From: an uncultured Candidatus Saccharibacteria bacterium
GTDB lineage: Bacteria > Patescibacteriota > Doudnabacteria > UBA920
Direction of reading: 5' to 3'
DNA: 58,516 nt
Assembly: GCA_964484145.1 (NCBI GenBank)
Contig: CAZAED010000003.1
Coordinates: 1 to 58,516 of the forward strand
Made by a program: the position numbers and the translations under genes
The notes under the pieces: model-generated
Databases searched by the model: none
What the model was told of the DNA's origin: nothing
The model's input: the letters and a program-made list of their open reading frames with translations, nothing else
Part shown: positions 1-58,089 of the stretch, piece by piece
Numbering within the stretch: position 1 is the stretch's first letter
Layout of the letters: each line of letters begins with the position of its first letter

Positions 1-306
1 CCATATATTGATGAGCGAGTTATGAAAAAGGTGTTAGGTGCAAAGAAAGGCCAGCAAATTAAAACCTGGTCCAGAGCTTGCACTATTGCGCCTGAATTCG
101 TAGGCTTTACTTTTATGGTGCATAACGGTAAGACTTTTTTACCAGTATTCGTTACTGAAAACATGGTAGGACATAAGTTAGGTGAGTTTGCTTTAACCAG
201 AAAATTCCACAGACATGGCGGTAAGATGGCTAAAGACCAGGAAGCAGCAGCAGCTGCGGCAGAAAGCGCTAAACTTAAGGCCGCTAAAGAACCCGTAAAG
301 AAATAG
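1..306 (+). CDS. rpsS: 30S ribosomal protein S19, 5' end outside window
   Basis: The frame is open from nt 1 ([11 protein letters not shown]...). S19 core motifs are present: [14 protein letters not shown] and [23 protein letters not shown]. Sits directly upstream of L22. Has an Ala/Lys-rich C-terminal tail. Confidence 0.93.
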
Positions 307-359
307 TTTCAAGTTTATAAAGTTCATCAAGTTATAAAGTAGACACATATATTAATTAA

Positions 360-923
360 ATGACTAAGTCCAATACAACAGAACAGAAAGTTATAAAGGC
401 ATCTGCCCTAAATCTTCGGATTTCTCCGCGTAAGATGCGTCTTTTAACTGACTTAGTTAGAGGTATGTATGTTGACCAGGCTGTAACGGCTTTAGAATAT
501 GCGCCACAAAAAGGCGCGGAATTTTTACTCAGAGCTATAAAATCTGCAGCCGCGAACGCCGTAAATAATTTTGCTTTAAAACCGGAAAATTTGTATGTAA
601 AAACCGTTACCTGCGATATGGGAAGAGTTATGAAACGCTATTTTCCAAGAGCTCGCGGCAGCGCGTTTGTTATAAAGCGCAAAATGGCTCACGTAAATGT
701 TGAACTTTCAGAAAAGGCGCGTGGTGGTAAAGCAGCTTCCCGTTTAGAACTTTTTAAGAAAAAACAGTCTGAAAATTTAGCAAGTGAAGACAAGAAGGAT
801 GCTACAGAAAAGAAGACCGAAAGCCCGAAAATTAAACAGCATACAGTTAAGACCGACGAACAGGTTAAAATGAACAAAGCTCAAAACAAGAGAAGACTAT
901 TTAATAGAAAGAGCGGAGAGTAA
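360..923 (+). CDS. rplV: 50S ribosomal protein L22 with long Lys/Glu-rich C-terminal extension
   Basis: The L22 core (ISPRKMRLLTDLVRG, RARGSAFVIKRKMAHV) occupies the first ~115 aa. Operon position fits. The remaining ~70 aa are low-complexity K/E-rich sequence. Confidence 0.93.
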   Translation: MTKSNTTEQKVIKASALNLRISPRKMRLLTDLVRGMYVDQAVTALEYAPQKGAEFLLRAIKSAAANAVNNFALKPENLYVKTVTCDMGRVMKRYFPRARGSAFVIKRKMAHVNVELSEKARGGKAASRLELFKKKQSENLASEDKKDATEKKTESPKIKQHTVKTDEQVKMNKAQNKRRLFNRKSGE

Positions 924-1004
924 TATAAAATTTAGGATATAAGATGTAAGATTTAGTTTGCATACTTATATCATAAATCCTAAATCATAAATCTTACATT
1001 TATT
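921..1004 (+). repeat. stop-to-start word-hairpin, family B (TAGGATATAAGATGTAAGA / TCTTACAT..TATCCTA)
   Basis: The 5' block 921-960 contains no C and the 3' block 961-1004 contains no G. ATGTAAGATTTA pairs with TAAATCTTACAT. Confidence 0.85.
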
Positions 1005-1700
1005 ATGGGACATAAGATTAATCCAACTTCATTTAGGCTTAAAGTAACCGACACGTGGAAATCGCGCTGGTTTGTTAAGCGAGGCTTTCAAAAAGCATTA
1101 GCTGAAGACGTTGCCATTCGCGCCTACTTAGAGCAGCACTTAAAAAAGGCCGGTCTAGTTAGGCTTGAAATTGAACGCGGCGGTACCGGTCAAATTACTA
1201 TTACTGTTAAAACTACTAAACCCGGGTTAATAATTGGAAAAGGCGGCGCGGGTATAGAGGAGCTTAAAAAGAAGATTAAACAGAAGCTAAGAATTAGAAA
1301 AGAATTGCGTGTAAATATTGAAGAAGTAAGGGATATAAACTTGCAGGCACAGGTTATAGCAGACGGCATAAGTGAACAAATTGAAAAACGCGTTGCTTTT
1401 AGAAAGCTTATGAAGCAGTCGTTAGAGCAAATTATGCAGGCTGGGGCTAAGGGTGCCAAAGTTTCTATAGGCGGAAGACTTAACGGAGCAGATATAGCAA
1501 GAACAGAGCATTTGTCACAAGGCAAAATCCCACTTCATACCATTAGAGCTGATATAGATTTTGCAAGAAGTACAGCTTTTACTACCTACGGCACTGTAGG
1601 TATAAAAGTATGGATATACAGAGGAGATGTATTTGAGGAAAAGAAGTCAGTAGCAGTAAATAAACCAGCGATTGAGCCGGTTATCGCAAAAGTTAAGTAA
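1005..1700 (+). CDS. rpsC: 30S ribosomal protein S3
   Basis: MGHKINP-FRL N-terminus, KH-domain GKGG motif, operon order. Confidence 0.96.
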   Translation: MGHKINPTSFRLKVTDTWKSRWFVKRGFQKALAEDVAIRAYLEQHLKKAGLVRLEIERGGTGQITITVKTTKPGLIIGKGGAGIEELKKKIKQKLRIRKELRVNIEEVRDINLQAQVIADGISEQIEKRVAFRKLMKQSLEQIMQAGAKGAKVSIGGRLNGADIARTEHLSQGKIPLHTIRADIDFARSTAFTTYGTVGIKVWIYRGDVFEEKKSVAVNKPAIEPVIAKVK

Positions 1701-1726
1701 AGTATTTATTAATTTACTAATTAGTT

Positions 1727-2131
1727 ATGTTCATTCCGTCTAAACTTAAACACCGCAAGCATCATCGCGGTCATACAAAGGGTGTGGCTACTGCGGGTAC
1801 CAACATAGACTTTGGCCAATTTGCCTTAAAGTCTTTGGAAAATGCTTGGGTAACTGCCAGACAAATCGAGTCCGCAAGAAGAGCGATGACCCGTTACGTT
1901 CAGCGCGGCGGTAAAATTTGGATCCGCCTTTTTGCCGACAAGCCAATTACAGTTCACGGAAACGAAAGTCCTATGGGTGGCGGTAAAGGCGCGGTTGACC
2001 ACTTTGTATGTGTGGTAAAGAAAGGTAAGATTTTGTTTGAAATGGACGGCGTAACTAGAGAGCAAGCGCAAGAAGCTATGAGATTGGCAAGTTATAAGTT
2101 ACCGGTTAAGACAAAGTTTTTATCAAAGTAA
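1727..2131 (+). CDS. rplP: 50S ribosomal protein L16
   Basis: [22 protein letters not shown] and MGGGKG motifs; operon order. Confidence 0.96.
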
Positions 2132-2138
2132 TTTATTT

Positions 2139-2226
2139 TACGGATTACGGACAGAGTACGGATATACGGATCATAATAAACCCGTTATCTACGTATCCGT
2201 ATATCCGTAAGAATCCGTAATCAGTA
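2139..2226 (+). repeat. stop-to-start word-hairpin, family A ((TACGGAT)n / (ATCCGTA)n)
   Basis: Four TACGGA(T/C) words at 2139-2171 face ATCCGTA words at 2193-2220. Confidence 0.88.
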
Positions 2227-2231
2227 AAGAT

Positions 2232-2423
2232 ATGAAGTTTAAAGAACTTACAACTAAATCTGAAGCAGAGCTTAAGAAAATGCTAGAAGAATTGCGCCAC
2301 GAAGCTCATGGTCTGAAAATGAAGCTTCGCTTGAATGAATCTAAGCACAGCCATAAGCTAGCTGGAATGAAGAAAGATATCGCTAGAATATTAACTCATT
2401 TACACACGAAAACAGCGAAATAG
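2232..2423 (+). CDS. rpmC: 50S ribosomal protein L29
   Basis: 63-aa helical protein (ELR-E...LRL) between L16 and S17. Confidence 0.9.
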   Translation: MKFKELTTKSEAELKKMLEELRHEAHGLKMKLRLNESKHSHKLAGMKKDIARILTHLHTKTAK

Positions 2424-2495
2424 AAAATTAGAGAAGTAGAGAAGCAGTATCGACTAACTTTCTAATTCTCTAATTCACTAACTATCTAAATTTAT
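2424..2495 (+). repeat. stop-to-start word-hairpin, family C (TTAGAGAA / TTCTCTAA)
   Basis: ATTAGAGAAGTAGAGAAG faces CTTTCTAATTCTCTAATTC. Confidence 0.85.
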
Positions 2496-2738
2496 ATGAC
2501 ATCAGATTCTAAAAAACAGCAAATGACCGGCGAAGTGGTTTCCACCAAAATGATGAAAACCGTGGTTGTTAAGGTAGACTCAAGAAAACGCCATCCTAAA
2601 TATAAGAAAGCTTATACAGTTTCAAAGCGCTTTAAAGCCCATACAGAAGAAAAGTTTGTAGTAGGGGACAAAGTAATTATTGAAGCCTGTAAGCCAATTA
2701 GCAAAGATAAGAGATTTAAAGTAATATCTAAAGCTTAA
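2496..2738 (+). CDS. rpsQ: 30S ribosomal protein S17
   Basis: G-VVS-KM-KTVVV-V and HPKYKK motifs; operon order. Confidence 0.93.
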   Translation: MTSDSKKQQMTGEVVSTKMMKTVVVKVDSRKRHPKYKKAYTVSKRFKAHTEEKFVVGDKVIIEACKPISKDKRFKVISKA

Positions 2739-2816
2739 GAGAAATAGAAAATTTGAGAAAAAGAGAAATGGAATTAACTAACTCTCTAATTCTCTAACTC
2801 ACTAACTATCTAATTT
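2739..2816 (+). repeat. stop-to-start word-hairpin, family C
   Basis: A C-free GAGAAATAGAAAATTTGAGAAAAAGAGAAATGGAATT block is followed by a G-free AACTAACTCTCTAATTCTCTAACTCACTAACTATCTAATTT block. Confidence 0.85.
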
Positions 2817-3218
2817 ATGTTACAAGTAAGATCCTGGATTAAAATAGCAGACAATACCGGCGTTAAAATCGCTAATATTTTTGGCGGTAGCGGAAAAAAT
2901 CGCAGCCGTTTTGTTAGAGTTGGAGACGTTGTCTCAGCTTCCGCAAAACAGGTAGCGCCTAACGGCAACTACAAAAAGGGCGACAAAATTAAGGTAGCTA
3001 TAGTTAGAACCAGAAAAGAAATGCGCAGGAGTGACGGGTCTTATATTAGATTTGATGAAAATGCCGGAGTGCTTGTAAAGAAAGACGCGAAAGGTAATTT
3101 TGAAATAATCGGTACTCGTATATTCGGTCCTATTCCAAGAGAAATTCGTGATATGGCAAGTGGGTATTATGAAGATGCTTATAAGAAAATAGTATCATTA
3201 GCTCCAGAAGTTATATAG
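2817..3218 (+). CDS. rplN: 50S ribosomal protein L14
   Basis: ADNTG, VRTRKE-RR-DGSYIRFD-NA and GTRIFGPIPRE motifs ending in SLAPEVI. Slightly longer than the usual ~122 aa. Confidence 0.95.
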   Translation: MLQVRSWIKIADNTGVKIANIFGGSGKNRSRFVRVGDVVSASAKQVAPNGNYKKGDKIKVAIVRTRKEMRRSDGSYIRFDENAGVLVKKDAKGNFEIIGTRIFGPIPREIRDMASGYYEDAYKKIVSLAPEVI

Positions 3219-3303
3219 CAGATTACAGATTAAAGATTATAGATTCCAGTAAAAGCTGTATCTAAATCTGAAATCTGAAATCTGAAATCTTTAATCTATA
3301 TTT
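3219..3303 (+). repeat. stop-to-start word-hairpin, family D (CAGATTA / (AAATCTGA)n)
   Basis: CAGATTACAGATTAAAGATTATAGATT faces TCTAAATCTGAAATCTGAAATCTGAAATCTTTAATCTA. Confidence 0.88.
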
Positions 3304-3621
3304 ATGAACAAACTCAGAATTAAAAAAGGCGATACAGTAAAAGTGCTTTCCGGCAAAGACAAAGGCAAAACCGGCAAGGTTATTTCGGTAATGCCAAAAC
3401 TTGGTAAGGTTGTTGTAGAAAACGCCAATATGCATACTCGTTTTGAAAAGGCTAAAAAAGCCGGCGAGAAAGGTAAAAAAGTTACTTTTTCTTCCCCTAT
3501 GCAAATTTCGAAAGTCCAGTTAATAGATCCGCATTCAGGTAATCCAACAAGAGTAAACTATACTTTTTTAGAAAACGGTAACAAGCAAAGAACAGCTAAG
3601 GCCAGTGGAAAGGCAGTATAA
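3304..3621 (+). CDS. rplX: 50S ribosomal protein L24
   Basis: KOW motif KKGDTVKVLSGKDKGKTGKV; operon order. Confidence 0.94.
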   Translation: MNKLRIKKGDTVKVLSGKDKGKTGKVISVMPKLGKVVVENANMHTRFEKAKKAGEKGKKVTFSSPMQISKVQLIDPHSGNPTRVNYTFLENGNKQRTAKASGKAV

Positions 3622-3693
3622 TGTACGGAAGTACAGATAATACGGATCATGTGGATCTGTAAAATCTGTAAGATCCGTAATTCTGTAAATTAT
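3622..3693 (+). repeat. ~70-nt hairpin repeat, copy 1 of 3 (GTACGGAAGTACAGATAATACGGATCAT...GGATCTGTAAAATCTGTAAGATCCGTAATTCTGTA)
   Basis: Near-identical to 4234-4304 and 4977-5051. Confidence 0.92.
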
Positions 3694-4233
3694 ATGGAAA
3701 GATTACAAGAAAAATATAATAAGGAAATTGTTAAAGCTTTGAAAGAAAAGTTTGGCTTTAAGAATGTAATGGAAGTACCAAGAATTTTGAAAGTTGTTAT
3801 TAATGTGGGCGTTGGAAAAATTAAGGAAGATAAGAAGCGTATAGATTTAGTAGTTGAAGATATTGCCAAAATTGCAGGACAGGCTCCGGTAAAGAATTTG
3901 TCCCGCAAGTCTATTTCAGGTTTTAAAGTAAGACAAAACCAAATTGTAGGTTTAAGTGTTACTTTAAGAGGATATAGAATGTATAGCTTTTTAGACAAGT
4001 TGGTCAATGTGGCCTTACCAAGAGTAAGAGATTTCCAGGGTATAAGCAAAAAAGGTTTCGACGGCCGTGGTAATTATCACTTGGGAATGAAAGAGCAAAT
4101 AGTTTTTCCGGAAGTTTCTCCGGATTCTCTAGAAAATATATTCGGCTTGGAAATTTCGGTAGTCACCAACGCTAAAAGAGACGATACAGCATATGAACTT
4201 TTAAAATTAATGAAATTCCCGTTTAAAGATTAA
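3694..4233 (+). CDS. rplE: 50S ribosomal protein L5
   Basis: The L5 sequence begins at MERLQEKYNKEIV. The 15 upstream codons of the tracked ORF (from 3649) read through the intergenic repeat. NLSRKSISGFKVR and RDFQG motifs are present. Confidence 0.93.
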   Translation: MERLQEKYNKEIVKALKEKFGFKNVMEVPRILKVVINVGVGKIKEDKKRIDLVVEDIAKIAGQAPVKNLSRKSISGFKVRQNQIVGLSVTLRGYRMYSFLDKLVNVALPRVRDFQGISKKGFDGRGNYHLGMKEQIVFPEVSPDSLENIFGLEISVVTNAKRDDTAYELLKLMKFPFKD

Positions 4234-4304
4234 TGTACGGAAGTACAGATAGTACGGATCATAGGGATCTGTAAAATCTGTAGAATCCGTAATTCTGTAA
4301 ATTT
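4234..4304 (+). repeat. ~70-nt hairpin repeat, copy 2 of 3
   Basis: Differs from copy 1 at a handful of positions. Confidence 0.92.
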
Positions 4305-4499
4305 ATGGCTACAGTAGCACACATTGTCAGAGCAAAACGAAGTAGAACCAAGGCAAAATTTTCCAGTAGGATAATTCGCCGTTGTTTTCGCTGCGGTAGA
4401 AAAGCTGCTTATATTCGAGATTTTGACCTTTGTAGAATTTGTTTTAGAGAATTAGCCAGTAAGGGAGAAATCCCTGGTGTTTCAAAAGCTTCCTGGTAA
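4305..4499 (+). CDS. rpsN: 30S ribosomal protein S14, zinc-binding type Z
   Basis: 64 aa, CxxC...CxxC (CFRCGR...CRICFRE), ends in W; operon order. Confidence 0.94.
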
Positions 4500-4583
4500 A
4501 TTTTATAAATTCGTAATCCCGACAAATATCTTTAAATAATCGATAATTAGTATATTAGTATCAATTAGTATTTAGTAAAGAAT

Positions 4584-4976
4584 ATGTATACAGACCCAAT
4601 CTCAGACATGCTAACCAGAATCCGCAACGCGTTGTCCGCAAAAAAGGATGACCTTGTTTTGCCATATTCAAAGTTTAAAAAGAACTTGGCGGATTTGCTG
4701 ATGCAAGAGGGTTTTGTGGCCGGAGTAAACGAATTAGAAGGTGACCATAAAATGCTCCAAATAAATTTAAAATATTCAGGCGCGGGCGAACCGGTAATTG
4801 CAGGAATAAAGCGCGTAAGTAAACCGGGGCAGAGAATTTATTTGTCTAAAGACAGCTTGCCTAGAACTAACAGCGGCCTTGGTCTTACTGTAGTTTCTAC
4901 TTCTAAAGGTTTAATGTCAGACAGAAAAGCAAGAAAAGAAAAAGTTGGCGGAGAAGTAATATGCCAGGTTTGGTAA
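4584..4976 (+). CDS. rpsH: 30S ribosomal protein S8
   Basis: DPISDMLTRIRNA N-terminus and GGEVICQVW C-terminus. Confidence 0.96.
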   Translation: MYTDPISDMLTRIRNALSAKKDDLVLPYSKFKKNLADLLMQEGFVAGVNELEGDHKMLQINLKYSGAGEPVIAGIKRVSKPGQRIYLSKDSLPRTNSGLGLTVVSTSKGLMSDRKARKEKVGGEVICQVW

Positions 4977-5051
4977 TTAACGTACGGAAGTACAGATAAT
5001 ACGGATCATACGGATCTGTAAAATCTGTAGAATCCGTAATTCAGTATATTT
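4977..5051 (+). repeat. ~70-nt hairpin repeat, copy 3 of 3
   Basis: Same sequence family as copies 1 and 2, between rpsH and rplF. Confidence 0.92.
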
Positions 5052-5606
5052 ATGTCAAGAATTGGAAAAAAACCCATAAGCATTCCTAGCGGAGTAAAGG
5101 TAGAAAAAACTGCCGGTCTTTTAAAGGTGTCCGGTCCGAAAGGTAATTTGCAGCAGGAGATTCATCCGCTTGTAACTGTTAATATTGTAGAAAACGAAGT
5201 TACTGTTGATGTTGTAAAGAAAGAAGACAAAAAACAGAGAGCATTGTGGGGTTTGTTCCGCTCTTTAGTTTTTAATATGATAGAAGGTGTTACAAAAGGT
5301 TTTGAAAAAAAGCTCGAAGTAAATGGCGTAGGCTTTAAGGTAGCATCTCAACCTGGTAAAATAGTTATGTCCTTGGGTTTTTCTCACCCGGTTGAAGTTA
5401 CGGTTCCAAAAGATTTACAGGCTGTTGTAGAAAAGAACTTAATTACTATTACCGGAGCAGACAAACAGAGAGTTGGACAATTTGCAGCTGAAATTAGAGA
5501 GTTGAAAAAACCTGAGCCGTATAAAGGTAAAGGTATTAAATATATAGACGAAGTTATTGTTAAGAAAGCGGGTAAAGTGGTTAAAGTAGTTGGTGGAGGC
5601 AAGTAA
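5052..5606 (+). CDS. rplF: 50S ribosomal protein L6
   Basis: MSRIGKKPI-IP-GV and PEPYKGKGI-Y motifs. Confidence 0.96.
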   Translation: MSRIGKKPISIPSGVKVEKTAGLLKVSGPKGNLQQEIHPLVTVNIVENEVTVDVVKKEDKKQRALWGLFRSLVFNMIEGVTKGFEKKLEVNGVGFKVASQPGKIVMSLGFSHPVEVTVPKDLQAVVEKNLITITGADKQRVGQFAAEIRELKKPEPYKGKGIKYIDEVIVKKAGKVVKVVGGGK

Positions 5607-5687
5607 ATATAAAATTTAGGATATAAGATGTAAAATGTTAGAGCTTAGTATATCCTAAATCCTAAATCATAAACCCTATATTTTTTT
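5604..5687 (+). repeat. stop-to-start word-hairpin, family B, second copy
   Basis: The first ~30 nt are essentially identical to 921-950. The 3' block is G-poor (TATCCTAAATCCTAAATCATAAACCC). Confidence 0.88.
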
Positions 5688-6041
5688 ATGGACAAGAACA
5701 AGCACAAAATAATAAAGCGAAATGTAAGGCATAGCAGAGTTCGCGCAAAAATTTCCGGTACTGAAAAGCGCCCTCGTTTAAGCGTATACAGAAGTTTGGC
5801 AGGTATTTACGCCCAGTTAATAGACGACTCAAACGGAAAAACTTTGGCTTTTGCATCAGCGAAAGAAATTAAGTCAAAGGCAAAAAAGACCGACATTTCC
5901 AAAGAAGTTGGAAAATTATTGGCACAAAAAGCAGTCGCAAAAAAAATATCTGAATGTGTATTCGATAGAGGCGGCTTTGCCTATCATGGCAGAGTAAAAG
6001 CTTTGGCAGAAGGCGCCAGAGAAGGCGGGCTTAAATTTTAA
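5688..6041 (+). CDS. rplR: 50S ribosomal protein L18
   Basis: [17 protein letters not shown] and [23 protein letters not shown] motifs. Confidence 0.96.
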
Positions 6042-6059
6042 TTAACTTATTTTACTATT

Positions 6060-6563
6060 ATGGCTTTTGAAAAAAGACGAAGACAATCTAGGGACGGGGA
6101 ACGCGAAGTTAGAGAGTTTGACCAAAAGACGGTAGAGGTCAAGCGTGTTACTCGTGTGGTTGCCGGCGGAAAAAGAATGCGTTTTCGCGCACTGGTTGTT
6201 ATTGGCGACCATAAAGGTAAAGTAGGTATGGGTTTAAGAAAAGGTGCAGACGTTTCTGAAAGTGTAAACAAAGCAGTTAACGCAGCTAAGAAGAACATGA
6301 TTACCTTGCCGCTCATTAACGGAACTATCCCTCACGGAATTAATGTAAAGTATAAGTCTTCTAAGTTAATGTTAAAACCAGCCAGACCAGGTACCGGTGT
6401 TATTGCGGGTGGGGCAGTTCGTCAGGTTTTTGAATTAGCCGGAGTTAAGAATGTTGTTTCTAAGATGCTTGGTTCAAATAACAAAGTTAATAATATTAAA
6501 GCTGTTTTTGAAGCTTTTACTAAAATGAAGAGCAAGGAAGTATTAGCAAAGATGCGCAAGTAA
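6060..6563 (+). CDS. rpsE: 30S ribosomal protein S5
   Basis: V-RVTRVVAGGKRMRFRALVV-GD-KG-VG-G and GTGVIAGG-VR motifs. Confidence 0.96.
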   Translation: MAFEKRRRQSRDGEREVREFDQKTVEVKRVTRVVAGGKRMRFRALVVIGDHKGKVGMGLRKGADVSESVNKAVNAAKKNMITLPLINGTIPHGINVKYKSSKLMLKPARPGTGVIAGGAVRQVFELAGVKNVVSKMLGSNNKVNNIKAVFEAFTKMKSKEVLAKMRK

Positions 6564-6630
6564 ATAGCTAATAAGCGAATGAGCAATTCAGCTTATAAGC
6601 TTACTAACTTATCTGCTTATTACTAAATTT
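6564..6630 (+). repeat. stop-to-start word-hairpin, family I (AAGC..TAAGC, central AGCTTATAAGCT palindrome)
   Basis: Shares AGCTTATAAGCT with 47648-47712. Confidence 0.75.
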
Positions 6631-7107
6631 ATGTTAAAACTCCATAACCTAAAAAAACATCCTAAGTCTACACATCGCCGCAAAGTTGTTGGTCGCGGTC
6701 TTGGCAGTGGTCACGGTACATATTCCACTCGTGGTGGTAAAGGCCAAACAGCCAGAACTGGTCATAGTAAAATGCCTGCTGGTTTTGAAGGTGGTCGTCA
6801 GCCAATAGTAAGACAGTTGCCAAAACTTAGAGGCTTTAGAGCCTTAACTGCTAAGCCTTTTGCTTTGTCTCTTTCTAAATTTGACGTTTTTGCGGATGGA
6901 GCAACTGTGGATATTAAATCTTTAATTGAAAAGGGTATAATAGAAAAAGGCCAGAGTGTTAAAGTTTTGGCCGGTGAAATAAAAAAGAAATTGAATATAA
7001 AGCTTCCTGTTTCAGCATCGGCTAAAGCGGTTATAGAAAAAGCTGGCGGAACAGTAATAGAACAGAATAACACAGAAGAAAAAACAGATAAACACGGAAG
7101 TAAGTAA
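6631..7107 (+). CDS. rplO: 50S ribosomal protein L15
   Basis: VGRG-GSGHG-YSTRG-KGQ-AR-G and FEGGRQP motifs. Follows S5 directly, with no L30 between them. Confidence 0.95.
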   Translation: MLKLHNLKKHPKSTHRRKVVGRGLGSGHGTYSTRGGKGQTARTGHSKMPAGFEGGRQPIVRQLPKLRGFRALTAKPFALSLSKFDVFADGATVDIKSLIEKGIIEKGQSVKVLAGEIKKKLNIKLPVSASAKAVIEKAGGTVIEQNNTEEKTDKHGSK

Positions 7108-7166
7108 TAGTGATTGTAGTTTAGATCCGTGCCTTTCTGTAAGTATCAGTGTTAATCAGTAACGAT

Positions 7167-8456
7167 ATGAATAAAATCTTACTTATTTGGAAAACCAAGG
7201 ACTTGCGCAATAAAATTTTAATTGTGCTAGGTCTTTTGTTAATTACCCGTGTTTTAACCCATGTTCCTATTCCCGGTATTGACCCAACCGGACTTAAGGC
7301 TTTCTTTCAGAATAGCCAGTTTTTGAATTTACTTGATGTTTTTTCCGGTGGTGGTTTAACGAATTTTTCCATAGCTATGCTCGGCGTAGGTCCTTATATT
7401 ACGGCCAGTATTATTATGCAGCTTCTTACTATAATAATACCGAGTTTTGCAGAAATGCAAAAAGAAGGTGGGGAAGCAGGAAGAGCTCAGCTTAACCAGT
7501 ATACCCGATATTTAACTATTCCTTTAGCACCGCTTCAGGCTTTTGGCACAATTAGACTTCTTTCCAGCCAAGGTGCCGGTGCGATTTTAGGCAGTTTTTC
7601 ACCATTTCAATGGTTCTTGGTTTTGCTTTCAGTAACTGCTGGTACCATGCTGATAATGTGGATAGGCGAAATAATGTCTGAATTTGATATTGGAAATGGT
7701 ATTTCTTTGGTAATTTTTGCTGGTATTGTAGCAAGGGTTCCAAGCGCTATTTCACAGGCCTATCAAATCTATCAGGGTAATCCAAATGCCGTTCCAACTT
7801 TGGTTGGGTTCGTATTAGTATTTCTTGCTGTAATTGCTGGTGTTGTGCTGGTTACTGAGGCACAAAGAAATATTCCTGTGGCGTACGCAAAACGTGTGCG
7901 TGGTAACAGACTTTTTGGTGGCGTTAATACCCATTTGCCCTTAAGACTTAACCAAGCAGGAGTTATTCCAATAATTTTTGCAATTTCTATAATGCTTTTT
8001 CCGGCTATGATAGCGCAGTTTTTTGTGAACGCAAAAAGCGCTCTTATTGCTAATTATGCGCAAAAGATTATTGCCTTATTTAATGACACAGGTACATGGT
8101 TTTACGGTATTATATACTTTGTTATGATATTAGGTTTTACTTATTTCTATACCGCGGTTGTATTTAACCCTGAAGAAATTGCGGAAAATGTGCAAAAAAA
8201 TGGTGGTTTTATACCAGGACTAAGACCCGGAGCTCAGACCGCAGACTACTTGTCTTCTGTGCTAAACCGTATTACTTTAGCCGGCGCTGTATTCTTGGCT
8301 ATAATTGCTATTTTGCCGCTTGTTGCTCAAAATTTAACCGACACTAAAGCCTTAACCCTAGGCGGCACATCTCTCTTAATTGTGGTGTCCGTAGTTATTG
8401 AAATTATAAAGAAAATAGAAGCCCAGTTAACCATGCATGATTACGAAGGCTTTTAG
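7167..8456 (+). CDS. secY: preprotein translocase subunit SecY
   Basis: Ten-TM profile with SecY motifs (GVGPYITASIIMQLL, GGFIPG-RPG). The ATG at 7167 is preferred over the upstream GTG at 7149, which lies inside the intergenic repeat. Confidence 0.94.
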   Translation: MNKILLIWKTKDLRNKILIVLGLLLITRVLTHVPIPGIDPTGLKAFFQNSQFLNLLDVFSGGGLTNFSIAMLGVGPYITASIIMQLLTIIIPSFAEMQKEGGEAGRAQLNQYTRYLTIPLAPLQAFGTIRLLSSQGAGAILGSFSPFQWFLVLLSVTAGTMLIMWIGEIMSEFDIGNGISLVIFAGIVARVPSAISQAYQIYQGNPNAVPTLVGFVLVFLAVIAGVVLVTEAQRNIPVAYAKRVRGNRLFGGVNTHLPLRLNQAGVIPIIFAISIMLFPAMIAQFFVNAKSALIANYAQKIIALFNDTGTWFYGIIYFVMILGFTYFYTAVVFNPEEIAENVQKNGGFIPGLRPGAQTADYLSSVLNRITLAGAVFLAIIAILPLVAQNLTDTKALTLGGTSLLIVVSVVIEIIKKIEAQLTMHDYEGF

Positions 8457-8499
8457 TAGGTTATAGGTGTTAGCTTTTAGGTTTTAGGAATGATACAAT

Positions 8500-8534
8500 A
8501 AACCTGCCCACACGGGCAGGTTTTAAATTTTTTT
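8500..8534 (+). terminator. intrinsic terminator after secY
   Basis: AAACCTGCCC-ACAC-GGGCAGGTTTT followed by a T-rich run. Confidence 0.85.
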
Positions 8535-9161
8535 ATGATAAAAGTTATTTTGTTTGATTGCGATGGTCCTATAATAAAGCGCACTAAATACTTTAGCCAA
8601 AGAATAGAGGAAGAAAAAGCTCTTAAAATTGACCACAAAAGGCAAAAAGAGTTTTTTGATGGAGAATTTTTGGAATGTGAAGTCGGTAAAAAAGATTTAA
8701 AAGAAATATTGCCCGCATGGTTACCTACATGGGGTTGGCAAGGTACTGTAGAAGAATTGCTTAAGTATTGGTTTGAGGGCGAGGCTGAGGTAGATATTAA
8801 AATGCTTAAATACATTAAGGAATTCAGAAATAAGGATATTAAATGTTATTTAACTACCAATCAGGAAAAGTACAGAGCTGAATATCTATGGAATGTAGTA
8901 GGTTTAAATAAACATTTGGACGACATCTTCGCTTCTTGTTACGTGGGCTATATGAAGCCAAAAAAAGAATTTTGGCAGGAAGTTTCTAAAAATTTTTCGG
9001 GAATAAATAAGTCCGAGGTTTTAGTTTTAGATGACGACCAAGATATTGTGAAATCGGCCCAAGATTTTGGTTTTAACGCGGAGTTCTATACAGATTTTAA
9101 TACTTTTCGTAATCAATTAACGAAATATGAAATATTTGACAATTACTCCAATACTATCTAG
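8535..9161 (+). CDS. HAD-superfamily hydrolase
   Basis: N-terminal DxD motif (ILFDCDG) and a later DD acidic motif (VLVLDDD). The last five codons and the stop codon lie in a palindrome. Confidence 0.8.
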   Translation: MIKVILFDCDGPIIKRTKYFSQRIEEEKALKIDHKRQKEFFDGEFLECEVGKKDLKEILPAWLPTWGWQGTVEELLKYWFEGEAEVDIKMLKYIKEFRNKDIKCYLTTNQEKYRAEYLWNVVGLNKHLDDIFASCYVGYMKPKKEFWQEVSKNFSGINKSEVLVLDDDQDIVKSAQDFGFNAEFYTDFNTFRNQLTKYEIFDNYSNTI

Positions 9162-13156: not shown

Positions 13157-13205
13157 CGCGCCGATTTATCGGCCAGCTAAGGACGCCCATAAATGGGCAC
13201 GCTAC
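13153..13205 (+). repeat. two-hairpin element, copy 1, overlapping stop codon of the ATPase gene
   Basis: The outer pair is GTAGCG...CGCTAC. It encloses hairpins GCCGAT-TT-ATCGGC and GCCCAT-AA-ATGGGC. The TAG stop is at 13154-13156. Confidence 0.88.
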
Positions 13206-13240
13206 GCATAGGTCAGAGATGAAATAAATAAGTCAAAGGC

Positions 13241-13545: not shown

Positions 13546-13620
13546 TCCACTTTTGCATAATTTTTTAGGTGTGTTATAATATATTAAATAGCTTAAAGGC
13601 TTTTTGAAACAAAAAATAAA

Positions 13621-13722
13621 ATCACTGATACACGGATAACACTGATGCCACAGATGCCTATAAATTAGGTTTATCACAAGTTTTAGAATCTGTGATATCT
13701 GTGCAATCAGTGTATCTGTGAA
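13621..13722 (+). repeat. word-hairpin, family G (CACGGATA/CACTGAT/CACAGAT vs ATCTGTG/ATCAGTG)
   Basis: The 5' arm 13621-13658 faces the 3' arm 13686-13722, which ends 6 nt before the ATG. Confidence 0.85.
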
Positions 13723-14346: not shown

Positions 14347-14470
14347 TTCACCGATACACTGATAACACAAATATCGCAGATGCTAAAAAAATATTAAACG
14401 CGGAAGCGTAGCTGAAGAAAGAAACGCTGAAGGGGTACGGAACTAAAATATTACTCGTAGTTATTTTAAT

Positions 14471-15201: not shown

Positions 15202-15313
15202 ATTGGAAGCGGTGGTATAATAGTATTGGCATAAATGACTTAAATGACAAAATTGAGCATAATTTATATGCAAAATGCATTTTAAATTTTGATCAATTTT
15301 GATCAATTGACTT

Positions 15314-16831
15314 ATGGCTGTATTATACAGAAAATATAGGCCCCAAACTTTTGCCCAAATTGTCGGGCAAAAGCCAATAGTCCGCACATTGCAAAATCAA
15401 ATTGCGAGCGGAGTTTTTGCTCATGCTTATTTGTTTACGGGAAGTAGAGGGGTGGGCAAGACTAGCGTTGCTAGAATATTTGCAAAGGCGGTAAATTGTG
15501 AAAGAAGAGAATTAGAGAAAGAGAGAAATAGTGAATTGGTCGGGGATGCGTGCGGGGAGTGTGCGGTTTGTAAGGCTATTGAGGCAGGTAACTTTATTGA
15601 CCTTATAGAAATTGACGCGGCTTCCAATACCGGAGTAGATAACGTTCGCGACATTATAGACCACGTAAAATTTTCGCCATCTTTAGGTAAGTATAAAGTT
15701 TTTATTATAGACGAAGTTCATATGCTCTCTAAGGGCGCTTTTAACGCGCTATTAAAAACCATAGAAGAGCCGCCCAAGCACGCTATATTTATTTTAGCTA
15801 CCACTGAAATTCAAAAAGTACCCGCAACTATAATTTCTCGAACCCAGCGGTTTGATTTTAAAGCTTATTCTGGGGCAGATATTAAAGAACATTTAAAAAC
15901 AATAATTCAAAAAGAAGGCTTGAATTATTCTGACGAGATTTTAGAATTAGTAGCCCAAAATGCCGGTGGCGGTATGCGTGATGCCTTGTCTATATTAGAC
16001 AAAATAACCACGCTAGGTCAAAGCGCAGAGGCAAGCGATGTTAGAGCGGTCTTAGGCATAACAGACGGGGCGCTGTTAAAACAAATAGTTGAACTTATTG
16101 GAGGTGGTAAGGCTCAGGAAATACCTGCTTTTTTTGAACTTCTGTTGGAAAAAGGTACAGATTTTTCTAGCTTTAATAAAGACTTGTTAGAATATTTAAG
16201 AAAGCTTTTGGTGCAAAAAATAACCGGTCAAGCAACAGAGGTTCTGGAAAATTTAACAGTGAATGATTTAATATTTGTTATTAGACTCTTTTTAAAGTCT
16301 TTTAAAGATCTGCAAACCTCGCCCAGTCCGGAAATTCCGCTATTACTTTCTGCTGTGGAGGCGGCCTTAAAAAAAAAGCCCAGTAATACACCAGCTGTAG
16401 CTCCTTTGTCTAAACCTGTAGTTACACAGCAGCCTGTTGTGAGGGTTTCCGAGCAAGCTTCCGCGGCTGTTTTAGAGCCAGTAAGTATTACCGCTTCTTA
16501 CGATGAGGCCGTCACAATAGAAGAGGTTAAAGTTTTTTGGCCAAAAGTTGTTTCAAAAATAAAAGACCAAAATGGTCCGTTAGGCAGCCTGTTAAGAGCA
16601 GCTCAAATTATAGCTATAAAGAATGGAAAAATTGTTGTTTGTGTTAAGTATCAGTTTGATATAAAAACAATAGAAAAAAATATGAGTTTTATAATCCAGG
16701 TAATTACAGAAATTAGTGGTAGAAATTTGGGCGTTGTAGGTGAATTGCCTGATAAATCGGCTGAAGCTCAAAATCCAGTCGCTGCTTTGAGTGATGCGCT
16801 TAAGATATTTGGAGGGGAAATAGTAGAATGA
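15314..16831 (+). CDS. dnaX: DNA polymerase III subunit gamma/tau
   Basis: YRP--F--IVGQ, Walker A GSRGVGKTS, a Cys cluster and DEVHMLS motifs. Carries a word-repeat insertion in the zinc module. Confidence 0.93.
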   Translation: MAVLYRKYRPQTFAQIVGQKPIVRTLQNQIASGVFAHAYLFTGSRGVGKTSVARIFAKAVNCERRELEKERNSELVGDACGECAVCKAIEAGNFIDLIEIDAASNTGVDNVRDIIDHVKFSPSLGKYKVFIIDEVHMLSKGAFNALLKTIEEPPKHAIFILATTEIQKVPATIISRTQRFDFKAYSGADIKEHLKTIIQKEGLNYSDEILELVAQNAGGGMRDALSILDKITTLGQSAEASDVRAVLGITDGALLKQIVELIGGGKAQEIPAFFELLLEKGTDFSSFNKDLLEYLRKLLVQKITGQATEVLENLTVNDLIFVIRLFLKSFKDLQTSPSPEIPLLLSAVEAALKKKPSNTPAVAPLSKPVVTQQPVVRVSEQASAAVLEPVSITASYDEAVTIEEVKVFWPKVVSKIKDQNGPLGSLLRAAQIIAIKNGKIVVCVKYQFDIKTIEKNMSFIIQVITEISGRNLGVVGELPDKSAEAQNPVAALSDALKIFGGEIVE

Positions 16832-16940
16832 CAAGAATGAGCAAGATTGACATGAATGACATGAATAGAATACACTATTAATAGACATTAATAAATTCTT
16901 GACAATCTTGTTCGATCATTTAAATCTTGTCAATTAAACT
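16826..16940 (+). repeat. word-hairpin, family E (GACAAGAAT/GAGCAAGATT vs ATTCTTGAC/ATCTTGTC), includes dnaX stop codon
   Basis: The 23-mer GAATGACAAGAATGAGCAAGATT (16826-16848) recurs exactly at 51957-51979. The 3' arm is AATTCTTGACAATCTTGTTCGATCATTTAAATCTTGTCAATT. Confidence 0.88.
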
Positions 16941-22697: not shown

Positions 22698-22748
22698 TGC
22701 GCCGATTTATCGGCCATTATCAGCAAGGCCCATAAATGGGCACGCTAC
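22694..22748 (+). repeat. two-hairpin element, copy 2, overlapping tpiA stop codon
   Basis: GTAGTGCGCCGATTTATCGGCC...GGCCCATAAATGGGCACGCTAC, with the TAG stop at 22695-22697. The C-to-T change in the outer stem keeps pairing as G-U. Confidence 0.88.
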
Positions 22749-22757
22749 ACATACAAT

Positions 22758-31389: not shown

Positions 31390-31474
31390 TTGACAAAAAT
31401 GACAAAAATAAGCTGCAGTTTGCATAAATAATCTTGTCAATCTTTTAATTCTTTTATATCTTGTCAATCAATCT
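31390..31474 (+). repeat. word-hairpin, family E with CTGCAG-containing loop
   Basis: TTGACAAAAATGACAAAAATAAG-CTGCAG-...ATCTTGTCAATC...ATCTTGTCAATC. Confidence 0.85.
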
Positions 31475-36373: not shown

Positions 36374-36445
36374 TTGGTAGTAAATAGTAGGTAGTAAGTA
36401 GCCTGCATGACTACCAACTACCCACTACCAACTACTTACTAACCT
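36374..36445 (+). repeat. word-hairpin, family H (GGTAGTAAGTAG / CTACTTACTACC-type)
   Basis: A C-free 5' arm faces a G-free 3' arm, ACTACCAACTACCCACTACCAACTACTTACTAACC. Confidence 0.88.
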
Positions 36446-38161: not shown

Positions 38162-38240
38162 TTTAAGCATATAAACATCTAAGCATACAAGCATGCGAAG
38201 TTACTTCTATGATTAAATGCTTTAATGTTTATATGTTTTA
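38162..38240 (+). repeat. word-hairpin (AAGCATATAAACAT / ATGTTTATATG)
   Basis: AAGCATATAAACATCTAAGCAT faces ATGCTTTAATGTTTATATGTTTT. Confidence 0.8.
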
Positions 38241-38672
38241 ATGAACACAATGAAACTAATTATAAATACAGACGGTGGTTCCAGAGGCAACCCTGGCCCT
38301 TCGGGCATTGGGGTGGTAATTCGAGATGAAAAAGGTATGGTTATTAGCGAGCACAAAAAATATATTGGCGAAACCACAAATAATCAGGCGGAATACAAAG
38401 CACTAATATTGGGCTTAGAAGAAGTTGGGAAAATATCCAATATCCAATATCCAATATCCAATCTTGAAGTTCGAATGGATAGTGAGCTTATAGTTAGGCA
38501 AATGCAAGGCCGTTATAAAATAAAAGACCAAGGGCTTAAACCCTTAGCTGACATTGTTTTAAAACTTTGTAAAAATTTTGAAAAAGTTGAATTTTGCCAC
38601 GTGCCAAGAGCGCAGAATTCAGACGCTGACAGGCTGGTAAATGAGGCTATAGACGAAGAGAAAAACAATTGA
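38241..38672 (+). CDS. rnhA: RNase H (type 1, RNase HI-like)
   Basis: TDGGSRGNPGPSG, NNQAEY-AL, DSEL and NS-AD-L motifs. Contains an (ATATCCA)4 tandem repeat in frame. Confidence 0.85.
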   Translation: MNTMKLIINTDGGSRGNPGPSGIGVVIRDEKGMVISEHKKYIGETTNNQAEYKALILGLEEVGKISNIQYPISNLEVRMDSELIVRQMQGRYKIKDQGLKPLADIVLKLCKNFEKVEFCHVPRAQNSDADRLVNEAIDEEKNN

Positions 38673-40098: not shown

Positions 40099-40200
40099 AG
40101 ATCGGTAGCAATACTAATCATTGACAAAATTGAGCAAGATTGACATGACTGACAAGATTTGGTCATTCCTAATCTTTTAAATTTTCTCAATCTTACCACC

Positions 40201-41208: not shown

Positions 41209-41292
41209 AATAAATGACAAAAACATAACTGCAGATGTATCTAAATTTTTGTCATTTTTGCTCATTTTTTTAATTTTTGTCATTTGTTTGTC
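41209..41292 (+). repeat. word-hairpin, family E with CTGCAG loop
   Basis: AAATGACAAAAACATAA-CTGCAG-ATG...TTTTTGTCATTTTTGCTCATTTTTTTAATTTTTGTCATTTG. Confidence 0.85.
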
Positions 41293-44905: not shown

Positions 44906-45031
44906 AATATAAGAAAATATGGTATAATAAGTTATCTAAATTACCTAAATTTAAAATCATCAACCTCTCCCTAACCTTCTCCAAGTCTTGGAGAGGGAAA
45001 CTAAAAAGGTTAGAGCTAAGGAAACAAAAAT

Positions 45032-47013: not shown

Positions 47014-47017
47014 TAAT

Positions 47018-47192
47018 ATTGACAAAATCGACAGAATTGACAAAATTAGGGGGCAACTGCGGTGGAATTATGTCAATTATTTAATTATTCCCGCCTGCCA
47101 AAATTAGTCTGTTTTACATCGCCGACTTATGATTATCAATAATCTTTTATAAGATAAAGATTTGGCGGGCCGGTAAATTTTGTTCAATCCTG
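47018..47192 (+). repeat. ~175-nt dispersed structured element, copy A
   Basis: Aligns along its length with 55308-55491 with only scattered substitutions. It has a family-E hairpin, then a long-range stem CCCGCCTGCCAAA / TTTGGCGGGCCGG enclosing about 55 nt. Confidence 0.9.
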
Positions 47193-47647: not shown

Positions 47648-47712
47648 TAAGAAGCACATAAGCATTTCAGCTGGTAAGCTTATAAGCTGACTTGCTTACT
47701 GCTTGTAAATCT
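47648..47712 (+). repeat. word-hairpin, family I
   Basis: AAGAAGCACATAAGCATTTCAGC...GCTGACTTGCTTACTGCTTG around AAGCTTATAAGCT. Confidence 0.8.
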
Positions 47713-48832: not shown

Positions 48833-48885
48833 GAGTTTTGGCTTTAAAATCTTACATCTTATATCCTAAATCTTAAATTTCTAAA

Positions 48886-49431: not shown

Positions 49432-49516
49432 GTAATTCTACAGAAAACTACAGAATCTAAAAACAAAGTTTTGTGGCGCGATTCTGTAGTTTTCTGTAGT
49501 GTATTTATGTTGTTGT
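49432..49516 (+). repeat. word-hairpin, family K (CTACAGAA / TTCTGTAG)
   Basis: ATTCTACAGAAAACTACAGAATC faces GATTCTGTAGTTTTCTGTAG. Confidence 0.88.
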
Positions 49517-51094: not shown

Positions 51095-51211
51095 TTGGAA
51101 ATGTTAAAAAATTTCGTTAAAACAAATAAATATGTTGTAATTAATTGTTTGCTATTTAACCCCAGATATTCTTTTAGGTTTTTTTATTTTGTCTGTGGAT
51201 AGAATATTCAG

Positions 51212-51237
51212 ATATTGGATATTGGATATTGGATATT
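51212..51237. repeat. (ATATTGG)3.7 tandem repeat, reverse complement of the (ATATCCA)4 repeat inside rnhA
   Basis: Exact 7-nt periodicity. Confidence 0.9.
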
Positions 51238-52974: not shown

Positions 52975-53081
52975 CTGATTATTGATAATTAATAACTTAT
53001 AACATCCGCCAAAAGCTCAAAAGGGAGCATTTAGGCGGATCCGCCTCTGGCGGAAAAAACCAAAATAAAAACAAAAAATAT

Positions 53082-53452: not shown

Positions 53453-53563
53453 TTCACGGATAGACGAATTACACTGATGACACAGATACTATGATAAAAC
53501 GGGTTCATAGATGGGGTTGTAATAAGAATCTGTGGAATTTGTGGTATCCGTGTATTTGTGAAT
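53453..53563 (+). repeat. word-hairpin, family G
   Basis: TTCACGGATAGACGAATTACACTGATGACACAGATACT faces GAATCTGTGGAATTTGTGGTATCCGTGTATTTGTGAAT. Confidence 0.88.
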
Positions 53564-55311: not shown

Positions 55312-55491
55312 CAAAATTGACATAATCGACGGAATTGACAAAATTAGGGGCACAACTGCAGTGTAATTATGTCAATTTTTTAAATTATTCCCGCCTGCCA
55401 AAATTAGTCTTTTTACATCGCCGACTTATGACTATCAATAATCTTTTATAAGATAAACATTTGGCGGGCAGGTAAATTTTGTCTATTCTGG
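55308..55491 (+). repeat. ~175-nt dispersed structured element, copy B (includes ftsI stop codon)
   Basis: See copy A. The loop carries CTGCAG at 55356-55361. The stem is CCCGCCTGCCAAA / TTTGGCGGGCAGG. Confidence 0.9.
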
Positions 55492-57992: not shown

Positions 57993-58089
57993 AAAAGTTT
58001 ACGAAGTACGAATGGGTACGAACATACGAATATAAGTTAGCGGCAGTTATTTTTGTTTCGTAAGTTCGTAAAATTTCGTACTTCGTAAA
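57993..58089 (-). repeat. word-hairpin, family J ((TACGAA)n / (TTCGTA)n) upstream of the EamA gene
   Basis: TACGAAGTACGAATGGGTACGAACATACGAAT faces TTTCGTAAGTTCGTAAAATTTCGTACTTCGTAAA. Same stop-to-start layout, on the minus strand. Confidence 0.88.

Follow-up and report, generated by a model that had tools for sequence, protein, structure and literature searches.

Several classes of small noncoding repeats which fold in transcripts have been described in bacteria. Repeats of the Correia/NEMIS, RUP/BOX, ERIC and Rickettsia palindromic element types are about 100 nucleotides (nt) long, dispersed, carry inverted ends, are co-transcribed and sometimes alter mRNA processing. Families of miniature inverted-repeat transposable elements (MITE) have one consensus each, terminal inverted repeats and target-site duplications. 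In E. coli, stems formed by REP (repetitive extragenic palindromic) elements stabilise the upstream mRNA and, when located near a stop codon, affect translation of the upstream gene. Inverted REP doublets, the REPINs, form hairpins in single-stranded DNA or in mRNA; they occur in several families per genome, singlets are remnants, and conservation is above neutral expectation (PMC3116915). The STRR (short tandemly repeated repetitive) elements of cyanobacteria are 7-bp tandem repeats which form hairpins between co-transcribed genes, e.g., hupS-hupL (PMC2670836). A role in transcript stability or translation coupling was suggested but not settled (PMC2670836). Here we analyse 58,516 nt of contig CAZAED010000003.1 (positions 1 to 58,516), referred to as a whole as the window, in which hairpins built from reiterated 7-10-nt words occupy most spacers of a ribosomal-protein operon. 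We consider it somewhat probable that these are mobile REP/STRR-like elements, the mRNA fold of which is kept because stop and start codons are held together and cistron ends are capped.

The S10/spc ribosomal-protein operon, which lacks L30, extends in the window from S19 to L15 and SecY. An exact match to the window's L14 protein is not on record. The host is a Candidatus Doudnabacteria, i.e., a member of the candidate phyla radiation (CPR, Patescibacteria), according to a scan with the L5 protein at one genome per species. The related locus L001 is 86-98% identical to the window across 16 operon proteins; L058 and L059 are close relatives fetched via SecY homologues (SecY 88-89% identical), and 26 further loci are Doudnabacteria with 65-85% identity to the window. 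The DNA of the relatives comprised pieces of 12-21 kb, compared to 58 kb for the host.

An earlier note, made from the letters of this DNA, had listed ten operon spacers and nine regions elsewhere as hairpins assembled from reiterated words. We compared the fold of each region with 200 dinucleotide-preserving shuffles. In all, 18 of the 19 regions beat their shuffles with z between -2.2 and -8.3. The ten ribosomal-protein spacers are without exception real hairpin spacers (z -2.2 to -7.0), and eight of the nine other regions fold significantly; for 31390-31474 the claim holds with respect to the words, not to the fold (z -0.7; 48 of 200 shuffles fold equally well). The control, 120 random 80-nt coding segments of the window, had a mean z of -0.25 with nine segments at z<-2 and one at z<-3. 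The stabilities are clearly above those of the dinucleotide-shuffled controls which the earlier note had put forward as a check. The elements of the operon are the following, with z values that refer to the spacer region in brackets.

930..985, + strand: word hairpin between L22 and S3, words TAGGATA/TAAGATG; z -3.7 (924-1004), 85% identical to 5608-5683.
2137..2228, + strand: word hairpin between L16 and L29, TACGGAT/ATCCGTA, period 8; z -7.0 (2132-2231), -39.6 kcal/mol.
2426..2475, + strand: word hairpin between L29 and S17, TAGAGAA/TTCTCTA, behind which a further 20 nt of 3' words stay unpaired; z -3.0 (2424-2495), 83% identical to 2748-2818.
2739..2810, + strand: weaker word hairpin between S17 and L14, family of 2424-2495; z -2.2 (2739-2816).
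3219..3284, + strand: word hairpin between L14 and L24, CAGATTA and four times AATCTGA, period 7; z -6.5 (3219-3303).
3624..3679, + strand: word hairpin between L24 and L5 and first copy in the TACGGA/TACAGAT family; z -5.9 (3622-3693), 91-93% identical to copies 2 and 3.
4236..4291, + strand: copy 2 of the TACGGA/TACAGAT family, between L5 and S14; z -6.8 (4234-4304).
4546..4581, + strand: solo 3' arm in the S14-S8 spacer, made of ATTAGTA words and left over from the TACGAA...TTAGTA family; z of the whole spacer -0.7.
4983..5038, + strand: word hairpin between S8 and L6, third copy in the TACGGA/TACAGAT family; z -5.3 (4977-5051).
5614..5667, + strand: word hairpin between L6 and L18, paralogue of 924-1004; z -2.7 (5607-5687).
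6565..6625, + strand: word hairpin between S5 and L15, built of TAAGC/GCTTA words and akin to 47648-47712; z -3.1 (6564-6630).

The remaining operon spacers, 307-359, 1701-1726, 4500-4583 (solo 3' arm only), 6042-6059 and 7108-7166, are without hairpin. Hairpins are present at 10 of 15 ribosomal-protein junctions vs, by an approximate hand count, 13 of 53 other junctions (p 0.004).

The elements are 55-105 nt long and their arms are tandem arrays of 7-10-nt words. A typical one has 28 bp within a span of 76 nt, with helix runs of 5 bp (median), and 5.4% of the runs reach 11 bp. The reiteration of words which the earlier note had described is borne out by counting: TACGGAT/ATCCGTA occurs in the window 13 times in intergenic and never in coding sequence, ATTGACA/TGTCAAT 16 times in intergenic vs three times in coding sequence. 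The same signal is evident in the lineage. A set of 263 spacers of 45-200 nt from the ribosomal-protein operons of 27 Doudnabacteria has a mean z of -3.7; 198 are at z<-2, vs 7.5% of the coding controls, and 167 at z<-3. Autocorrelation over these spacers is highest at lag 7 (0.38 vs 0.285 in shuffles) with further peaks at 14 and 8; 97 spacers have their best word period at 7 or 14, another 93 at 8-10. At the same 15 junctions the spacers measure mostly 60-130 nt in Doudnabacteria vs 0-30 nt in outgroups (Firmicutes, Bacteroidota, other CPR). The layout is a trait of the whole lineage, beyond one genome.

Hairpins between ribosomal-protein genes bring to mind intrinsic terminators or attenuators, internal promoters, or autoregulatory leaders. 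Leader autoregulation is known for this operon elsewhere and some of the hairpins, e.g., 5607-5687, are followed by T-rich tracts. The stems of the operon spacers are AT-rich and have no GC-stem plus U-tract, on which grounds we rejected terminators. The sole strong terminator-like match in 1-9000 is at 8500-8523, past secY; the others are weak 5-7-bp stems within coding sequence. A consensus scan returned no strong promoter match in the operon spacers, and promoters formed by the TTGACA words were rejected because no -10 boxes are found at the right spacing. At the gathering threshold Rfam gave no match, leaders included, in the window and ten related loci, and the sequences are not conserved at orthologous junctions. 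An explanation of this type is almost negligibly probable.

The hairpins are placed against the ends of open reading frames (ORFs). In the window, pairing begins 0-7 nt past the stop codon and ends 3-20 nt before the start codon, with the word block reaching to a few nt from the ATG; the stop-to-start geometry reported in the earlier note is thus real, with this distinction between word block and paired part. Across 198 hairpins the median distance from stop to stem is 3 nt, and it is at most 5 nt in 70%. The distance from stem to start has a median of 10 nt and exceeds the former in 154 cases vs 32 (p 2e-20), i.e., pairing stops short of the start codon and of about 10 nt before it. The genes concerned have almost no Shine-Dalgarno (SD) sequences: an SD-like motif precedes only 3-6% of the ribosomal-protein genes in the window and 29 related loci. 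The starts have AAnTTT-ATG as a common context, in which position -1 is T in 90-93% and G hardly occurs between -7 and -1, in long and short spacers alike.

One hypothesis of the earlier note amounts to a purpose-built switch for translational coupling: the leader of the next cistron would be sequestered in the hairpin until a ribosome that has come to termination upstream, and no other, melts the 5' arm, which would enforce 1:1 coupling without an SD. The footprint of a ribosome places stems at 0-5 nt past the stop, as found in 70% of the hairpins, within reach of the terminating ribosome. Absence of SD sequences, strong conservation of retained copies and enrichment in the ribosomal-protein operon are in line with such a switch. 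However, pairing already spares the start codon together with 10 nt (median) before it, and no enrichment of G·U pairs on the mRNA strand is seen. We judge the switch unlikely, and several of the copies outside the operon speak against it as well.

13631..13720, + strand: word hairpin in a 5' untranslated region (UTR), words CACGGAT/CACTGAT/CACAGAT; z -6.2 (13621-13722). A promoter-like site lies upstream at 13552-13580, and the ATG at 13729 is 8 nt past the hairpin end.
14347..14388, + strand: solo arm directly past a stop codon and complement of 13681-13722, with a match of 86% across 43 nt in minus orientation.
15240..15310, + strand: word hairpin flush with the start of a dnaX-like gene, past a terminator-like stem.
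16829..16932, + strand: word hairpin between two genes, AATGACA/ATTGACA words; z -4.3 (16826-16940).
31390..31474, + strand: words TTGACAA/TTGTCAA, listed in the earlier note, fold not significant; z -0.7.
36376..36444, + strand: word hairpin, GTAGTAA/CTACCAA, period 7, antisense strand folds better; z -2.8 (36374-36445).
38165..38238, + strand: word hairpin between a recJ-like and an RNase H-like gene; z -5.8 (38162-38240).
40120..40191, + strand: word hairpin shortly 5' of the start of a mreB-like gene, in a long intergenic region.
41212..41257, + strand: word hairpin 3 nt past the stop of the mreB-like gene, next start about 120 nt away, in a long intergenic region.
47650..47706, + strand: word hairpin between a response-regulator gene and a PCC-domain gene; z -3.5 (47648-47712).
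48847..48875, + strand: solo 3' arm shortly 5' of a start codon, exactly complementary to the 5' arm in 924-1004, with a match of 96.6% across 29 nt in minus orientation.
49435..49502, + strand: near-perfect word hairpin of CTACAGAA words; z -8.3 (49432-49516).
53453..53562, + strand: word hairpin between an ftsL-like and an ftsI-like gene; z -4.8 (53453-53563).
57998..58089, - strand: word hairpin of the TACGAA/TTCGTA family between two minus-strand genes; z -8.0 (57993-58089). It is 81% identical over 100 nt to a copy in L004 and has matches in L047, L021, L022, L012 and L014.

In the long intergenic regions, too, hairpins of the window abut an ORF end. Those at 13631-13720, 15240-15310 and 40120-40191 are positioned shortly before a start with no nearby upstream stop, and those at 41212-41257, ~47018 and ~55322 shortly past a stop with the next start 120-170 nt away. 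The stop-to-start layout is therefore a special case, seen where two ORF ends lie near each other. A coupling switch does not account for elements in 5' UTRs past promoters or past stops without a nearby start. As a separate observation, SD-like GGAG/AGGA motifs were seen by eye before several window genes that follow promoter-like sites (13312, 42635, 45032, 50154).

Positions at single ORF ends suggest another function: the hairpins might solely process or stabilise mRNA and confer differential stability on cistrons with no role in initiation, comparable to REP in malE-malF or the 3' inverted repeats of chloroplasts. Elements are found at 3' ends of ORFs, upstream of terminator-like stems, and at 5' ends, and the same function was proposed for STRR. 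Further, the stems are stable but interrupted, and the rarity of 11-bp runs would limit cleavage by double-strand-specific RNases. Against this stands that a decay barrier alone explains neither the gap of about 10 nt before the start nor the kept AAnTTT-ATG, whereas selection on the initiation region would explain both. Stabilisation as the only role is, in our estimate, distinctly unlikely.

The hairpins belong to dispersed sequence families and are not locus-specific leaders. In the window, 3622-3693, 4234-4304 and 4977-5051 are 91-94% identical and homologous over the full distance between stop and start; identity is 85% for 924-1004 with 5607-5687 and 83-84% for 2424-2495 with 2739-2816. 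The solo arm 4546-4581 is identical in 36 of 36 nt to copies in L021, the ribosomal proteins of which are only ~75% identical to those of the window, and 97% identical to L014. BLASTN clustering of 321 spacers yielded families of as many as 21 members, which come from 9-12 genomes and from up to 10 different junctions. With one arm of the ATTAGTA family as the query, a metagenome scan picked up 17 further copies adjoining other genes, solo arms among them. The TACGGA/TACAGAT element of the window itself had no match in a metagenome scan of its own and is absent from the 59 loci compared. With families at unrelated junctions and in other genomes and no match in Rfam, the earlier claim is well founded that the layout belongs to the genome as such and does not represent autoregulatory leaders of ribosomal-protein genes.

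Copies occur in both orientations. According to a reading of flanking ORFs and six-frame translations, ~11 of the 17 metagenome copies are oriented with their flanking genes and 4-5 opposite; some copies precede SD-bearing leaders. Inverted copies, and occasionally SD-bearing leaders behind them, are not expected of a coupling switch. In the operon set the 5' arm is more purine-rich in 69%, and 307 of 322 family links are same-oriented.

A different picture emerges when the same junction is compared among close relatives. Despite 86-98% identity of the ribosomal proteins, the window, L001, L058 and L059 have unrelated elements or none at nearly every shared junction. In this order, the L16-L29 spacer measures 100, 28, 18 and 40 nt, and the L29-S17 spacer 72, 5, 101 and 10 nt. 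Even the sister pair L009/L010 has different elements at 4 of 12 long junctions. By eye, with no identity computed, the L14-L24 element of L010 resembles the S5-L15 element of L009; such a resemblance would mean copying between junctions. Orthologous spacers were accepted only at an identity of at least 88%, as a 75% threshold in global alignments gave a spurious homology of AT-rich sequence, for example at several junctions of the window and L001.

Insertions are also found within elements. Palindromes of the form CCTGCC-N7-9-GGCAGG (20-21 nt) are located at the apex of two L009 hairpins and are absent in L010. A CCTGCC..GGCAGG insertion is present in one arm in L014, not in L021, and a 50-nt version in L021, not in L022. 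Solo arms, nested mini-palindromes and wholesale replacement are the behaviour of copied or mobile DNA. On a wider view, nested GC-rich mini-palindromes, CCTGCC-N-GGCAGG (20-21 nt) and GGCGGATCCGCCTCTGGCGGAAA, occur in L009, L014, L021, L002, L003, L022 and the window. Those in the window are at 8503-8520 and ~53033-53057; a CCTGCC..GGCAGG copy forms the terminator-like stem past secY.

This turnover speaks against the coupling switch: close relatives lack the element of a given junction or have another in its place, and some lineages have hardly any elements. Unmasking of the next start is a special and stronger version of the model we favour, and it leaves copies without stop-to-start placement, the free start region and the dispensability of junctions unexplained.

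Elements which stay in place hardly change. In 16 genes of L009 and L010 third codon positions are 67.5% identical, first and second positions 95.9%. In eight orthologous spacers of the same pair 603 of 645 nt are identical, among them 72/72 (L24-L5), 64/64 (L5-S14), 71/72 (L6-L18) and 90/91 (S19-L22), while the adjoining 90 nt of coding sequence are only 73-94% identical. The difference to third positions is highly significant (Fisher p 2e-48); at the third-position rate 72/72 would have a probability of 5e-13. Other pairs gave 93/99, 88/92, 96/100, 94/105 and 82/89 identical nt at third-position identities of 0.54-0.71. Retained copies change 5-10 times slower than silent codon sites. Such identities, 93-100% against 67% at third positions, demonstrate strong constraint: retained elements are under organism-level purifying selection while in place. 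Among 16 orthologous pairs substitutions affect 46 of 1080 paired vs 68 of 700 unpaired nucleotides (p 7e-6), i.e., the stems are more constrained than loops and tails, and the latter are constrained, too.

These data need to be held against the view that the elements are selfish or mutational DNA palindromes without any RNA role, in which slippage and template switching would build the arrays and the geometry would merely reflect filled short spacers. Dispersed families, solo arms, nested insertions and the rapid gain, loss and replacement are what one expects from such DNA; both orientations, the lack of a strand-specific pairing signature and similar hairpins in Gemmata and in cyanobacterial STRR fit as well. 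Yet orthologues that are 93-100% identical at 67% identity of silent sites, next to diverged coding sequence, cannot be neutral. Three paralogous copies per genome in L009 and L010 hold junction-specific differences common to both genomes, which excludes independent insertion and within-genome homogenisation as the source of identity. Furthermore, the elements abut ORF ends even in long intergenic regions. A purely selfish or mutational origin of the pattern is, therefore, quite improbable.

Selection might instead act on the DNA, with word arrays that bind a protein, or with a cruciform or single-strand hairpin active in replication or transcription. In favour of this one can cite that the sequence is kept, loops included, beyond pairing, that the antisense strand folds at least as well, and that the same words recur across genomes which are ~70% identical in ribosomal proteins. 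However, the limits of the elements track stop and start codons, features that belong to translation and not to DNA, and the words are wholly different between families, which makes a single binding protein unlikely. We rate a DNA-level function as very improbable.

Taken together, we favour the explanation that the hairpins are mobile elements of the REP/STRR kind with a selected fold in the transcript. Elements would spread at the DNA level and be transcribed inside polycistronic mRNAs. An insertion of 70-100 nt between coupled SD-less cistrons may be tolerable only when it is folded into a self-contained stem. The stem would keep stop and start about 13 nt apart in space and so preserve coupling of termination and reinitiation, and the folded state would avoid pairing with neighbouring initiation regions. 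Once an element is present, mutations which loosen the stem would be harmful, and selection would keep the fold. In addition, the stem may cap cistron ends against exonucleases, which would cover the copies in 5' UTRs and at 3' ends. Selection on the transcript is inferred because boundaries follow stop and start codons and because the SD-less initiation context is kept.

Several observations weigh against this explanation. The spacers of L005/L007, L017, L012 and L025 are largely compact; evidently no junction needs an element, as the compact Doudnabacteria L005/L007, L017 and L012 demonstrate. The constraint on loops and tails is beyond what pairing alone explains. Single changes in stems of orthologous pairs keep the pair in 15 of 42 cases, about the neutral expectation, and compensatory double changes number only two, the pairs having too few changes for covariation. 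The antisense strand folds better in 175 of 263 spacers, and no G·U signature of selection on the mRNA strand is detectable in these spacers. In strand-neutral folds A·C mismatches outnumber G·T by 80 to 34; the ratio of 2.35 compares to 2.39 predicted from the A>T composition of mismatches, and hence reflects strand skew and not selection. The G·U/A·C asymmetry is accordingly not evidence against an RNA role. The orientation bias, about 70:30 both by arm composition and by the genes that flank the metagenome copies, is inseparable from the direction of replication because all sampled operons probably run with replication. No transposase-like or other mobilising gene was found among 20 hypothetical proteins scanned and in the gene lists of L058 and L059, nor was a gene for a REP-associated tyrosine transposase (RAYT) seen in the available DNA (58 kb of the host, 12-21-kb pieces of relatives). 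Finally, neither target-site duplications nor defined ends were seen; occupied and empty junctions of the window, L001, L058 and L059 are unalignable outside the coding sequences.

An extension of the translational aspect may be considered. The elements could be interchangeable intercistronic cassettes of SD-less translation, each combining the termination context of one cistron with the initiation region of the next, and the terminating ribosome or its 30S subunit would cross the base of the hairpin to the next start in a bacterial analogue of ribosome shunting. We hold this to be improbable. If true, it would explain conservation of every nucleotide alongside swapping of whole cassettes, and the same logic might extend to the heptamer hairpins of Nostocales and Gemmata.

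Two further systems were considered and rejected. Integron attC sites, with their ORF-hairpin-ORF order, were dismissed by eye: there is no conserved core at the hairpin ends and the flanks are an ordinary ribosomal-protein operon. TIGR-Tas arrays (TIGR, tandem interspaced guide RNA) occur in CPR bacteria and phages. A TIGR array is defined as an array adjoining a tas gene, the units of which have box C/D motifs and dual spacers (PMC12045711). The elements described here are single, dispersed between housekeeping genes, and no Tas-like gene is present among the scanned window proteins and in the gene lists of L058 and L059.

The window contains other repeats and genes that deserve mention. Downstream of the operon are about 50 housekeeping genes, nearly all on the + strand, at a GC content of ~38%; a scan of the window for tRNA and tmRNA returned none. 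A few genes past secY an 850-aa VirD4/TraG-type protein (T4SS-DNA_transf, DUF8128) is encoded and kept in the window (10604-13156), L058 (16143-18686) and L059 (13262-15814). A second intercistronic element of ~137 nt has four consecutive GC-rich hairpins followed by AAGGAAT ~9 nt before the ATG. Its stems are TTCTCCCC..GGGGAGA, GTCACCC..GGGTGAC, GAGAGGTT..AACCTCTC and CCCTCTCC..GGAGAGGG. It is located in the window at 44951-45031 and also in L001 (L24-L5, L6-L18, S5-L15), L002 (eight spacers), L013 and L023. Hairpin 2 has compensatory changes, the stems pair SD-like with anti-SD-like sequence, Rfam has no match, and the L002 copies carry nested insertions of ~25-135 nt.

Two repeats lie directly past stop codons. 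One, of 171 nt, is 92% identical between 47015-47183 and 55313-55482, i.e., behind a histidine-kinase gene and an ftsI-like gene, and combines a TTGACA-word hairpin with a long CCCGCC...GGCGGG stem behind it. The other is a two-hairpin motif, GCCGATTTATCGGCC ... GCCCATAAATGGGCACGCTAC, at 13158-13210 and 22699-22753 (86% identical, no Rfam match), with similar pieces near 42500 and 51420. In addition, a tandem heptamer array, (GATATTG)n, is intergenic at ~51207-51237 and has a close match on the opposite strand within RNase H-like coding sequence at 38432-38468.

Among cellular genomes, those of CPR bacteria rank with the smallest and most streamlined. Structured repeats of 60-130 nt at most junctions of the most highly expressed operon sit poorly with streamlining, and the conflict is eased only if the elements matter for expression or are very effective parasites. 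They offer a natural system in which translation of SD-less cistrons in operons can be studied, and furnish evidence that small mobile DNA, nested palindromes of 20 nt among it, exists in organisms without a known mobilising enzyme. Annotators are advised that these hairpins are neither terminators nor leaders.

How do the elements relate to what is known? The earlier note knew of no described class with a word-built geometry. This does not stand since STRR heptamer hairpins (PMC2670836) and REPINs (PMC3116915) are described. A full-text literature search, in turn, retrieved no description of such elements in Doudnabacteria, Patescibacteria or CPR. Of REP and its bacterial interspersed mosaic elements (BIMEs), which the earlier note had named as the nearest analogue, one can say that the analogy is fair, yet cyanobacterial STRR are closest. 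Heptamer-word hairpins of the same build were also seen in ribosomal-protein spacers of Gemmata (L033, L057) and Parcubacteria GW2011_GWB1_42_6 (L056), e.g., GTTATCAGTTGTCGGTTATCAGTTGTCAG ... CTGATAACTGACAAC. The phenomenon is hence not confined to Doudnabacteria or cyanobacteria, and STRR hairpins gain a link to a second and third phylum where the same questions apply.

With REP and REPINs the Doudnabacteria elements share extragenic, imperfect palindromes, multi-copy families, inverted doublets and solo arms as remnants. They differ in that the arms are arrays of words with no single conserved REP core, and in that whole stop-to-start spacers are replaced. MITE-type families are set apart by one consensus where many word-built families exist here, and no duplications are seen. 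Hairpin-dependent translational coupling and ribosome shunting have the same geometry: in E. coli atpHA, MS2 coat-replicase and the 35S leader shunt of cauliflower mosaic virus a stop lies at the base of a stable stem and the next start just past it, as it does here. Those cases are single, locus-specific and experimentally shown, whereas the present ones are interchangeable repeat families known from sequence.

The likeness to STRR goes furthest, with tandem 7-nt words in inverted hairpin blocks between genes. The nested CCTGCC..GGCAGG insertions recall the very small palindromic repeats which Elhai et al. in 2008 reportedly found nested within Nostoc STRR. To our knowledge the function of STRR hairpins has been unsettled since 1990, and we know of no STRR report on slow change of retained copies together with wholesale replacement. 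There are clear differences. The host is a CPR bacterium with a genome of ~1 Mb, not a heterocystous cyanobacterium with the large genome of Nostocales. The words here are TACGGAT, TACGAA, TTAGC etc., unlike the STRR consensus words; periods of 8-10 nt are common, too; and the elements fill most junctions of a ribosomal-protein operon, the genes of which have no SD. What was known already is the kind of element, STRR/REP; what is new is the variant in Doudnabacteria. An unexpected host is thereby added, and the combination of rapid replacement with very slow change of retained copies makes the question of parasite, stabiliser or coupling device testable. The hairpins are the Doudnabacteria counterpart of REP/REPIN and, most closely, of the heptamer hairpins of cyanobacterial STRR.

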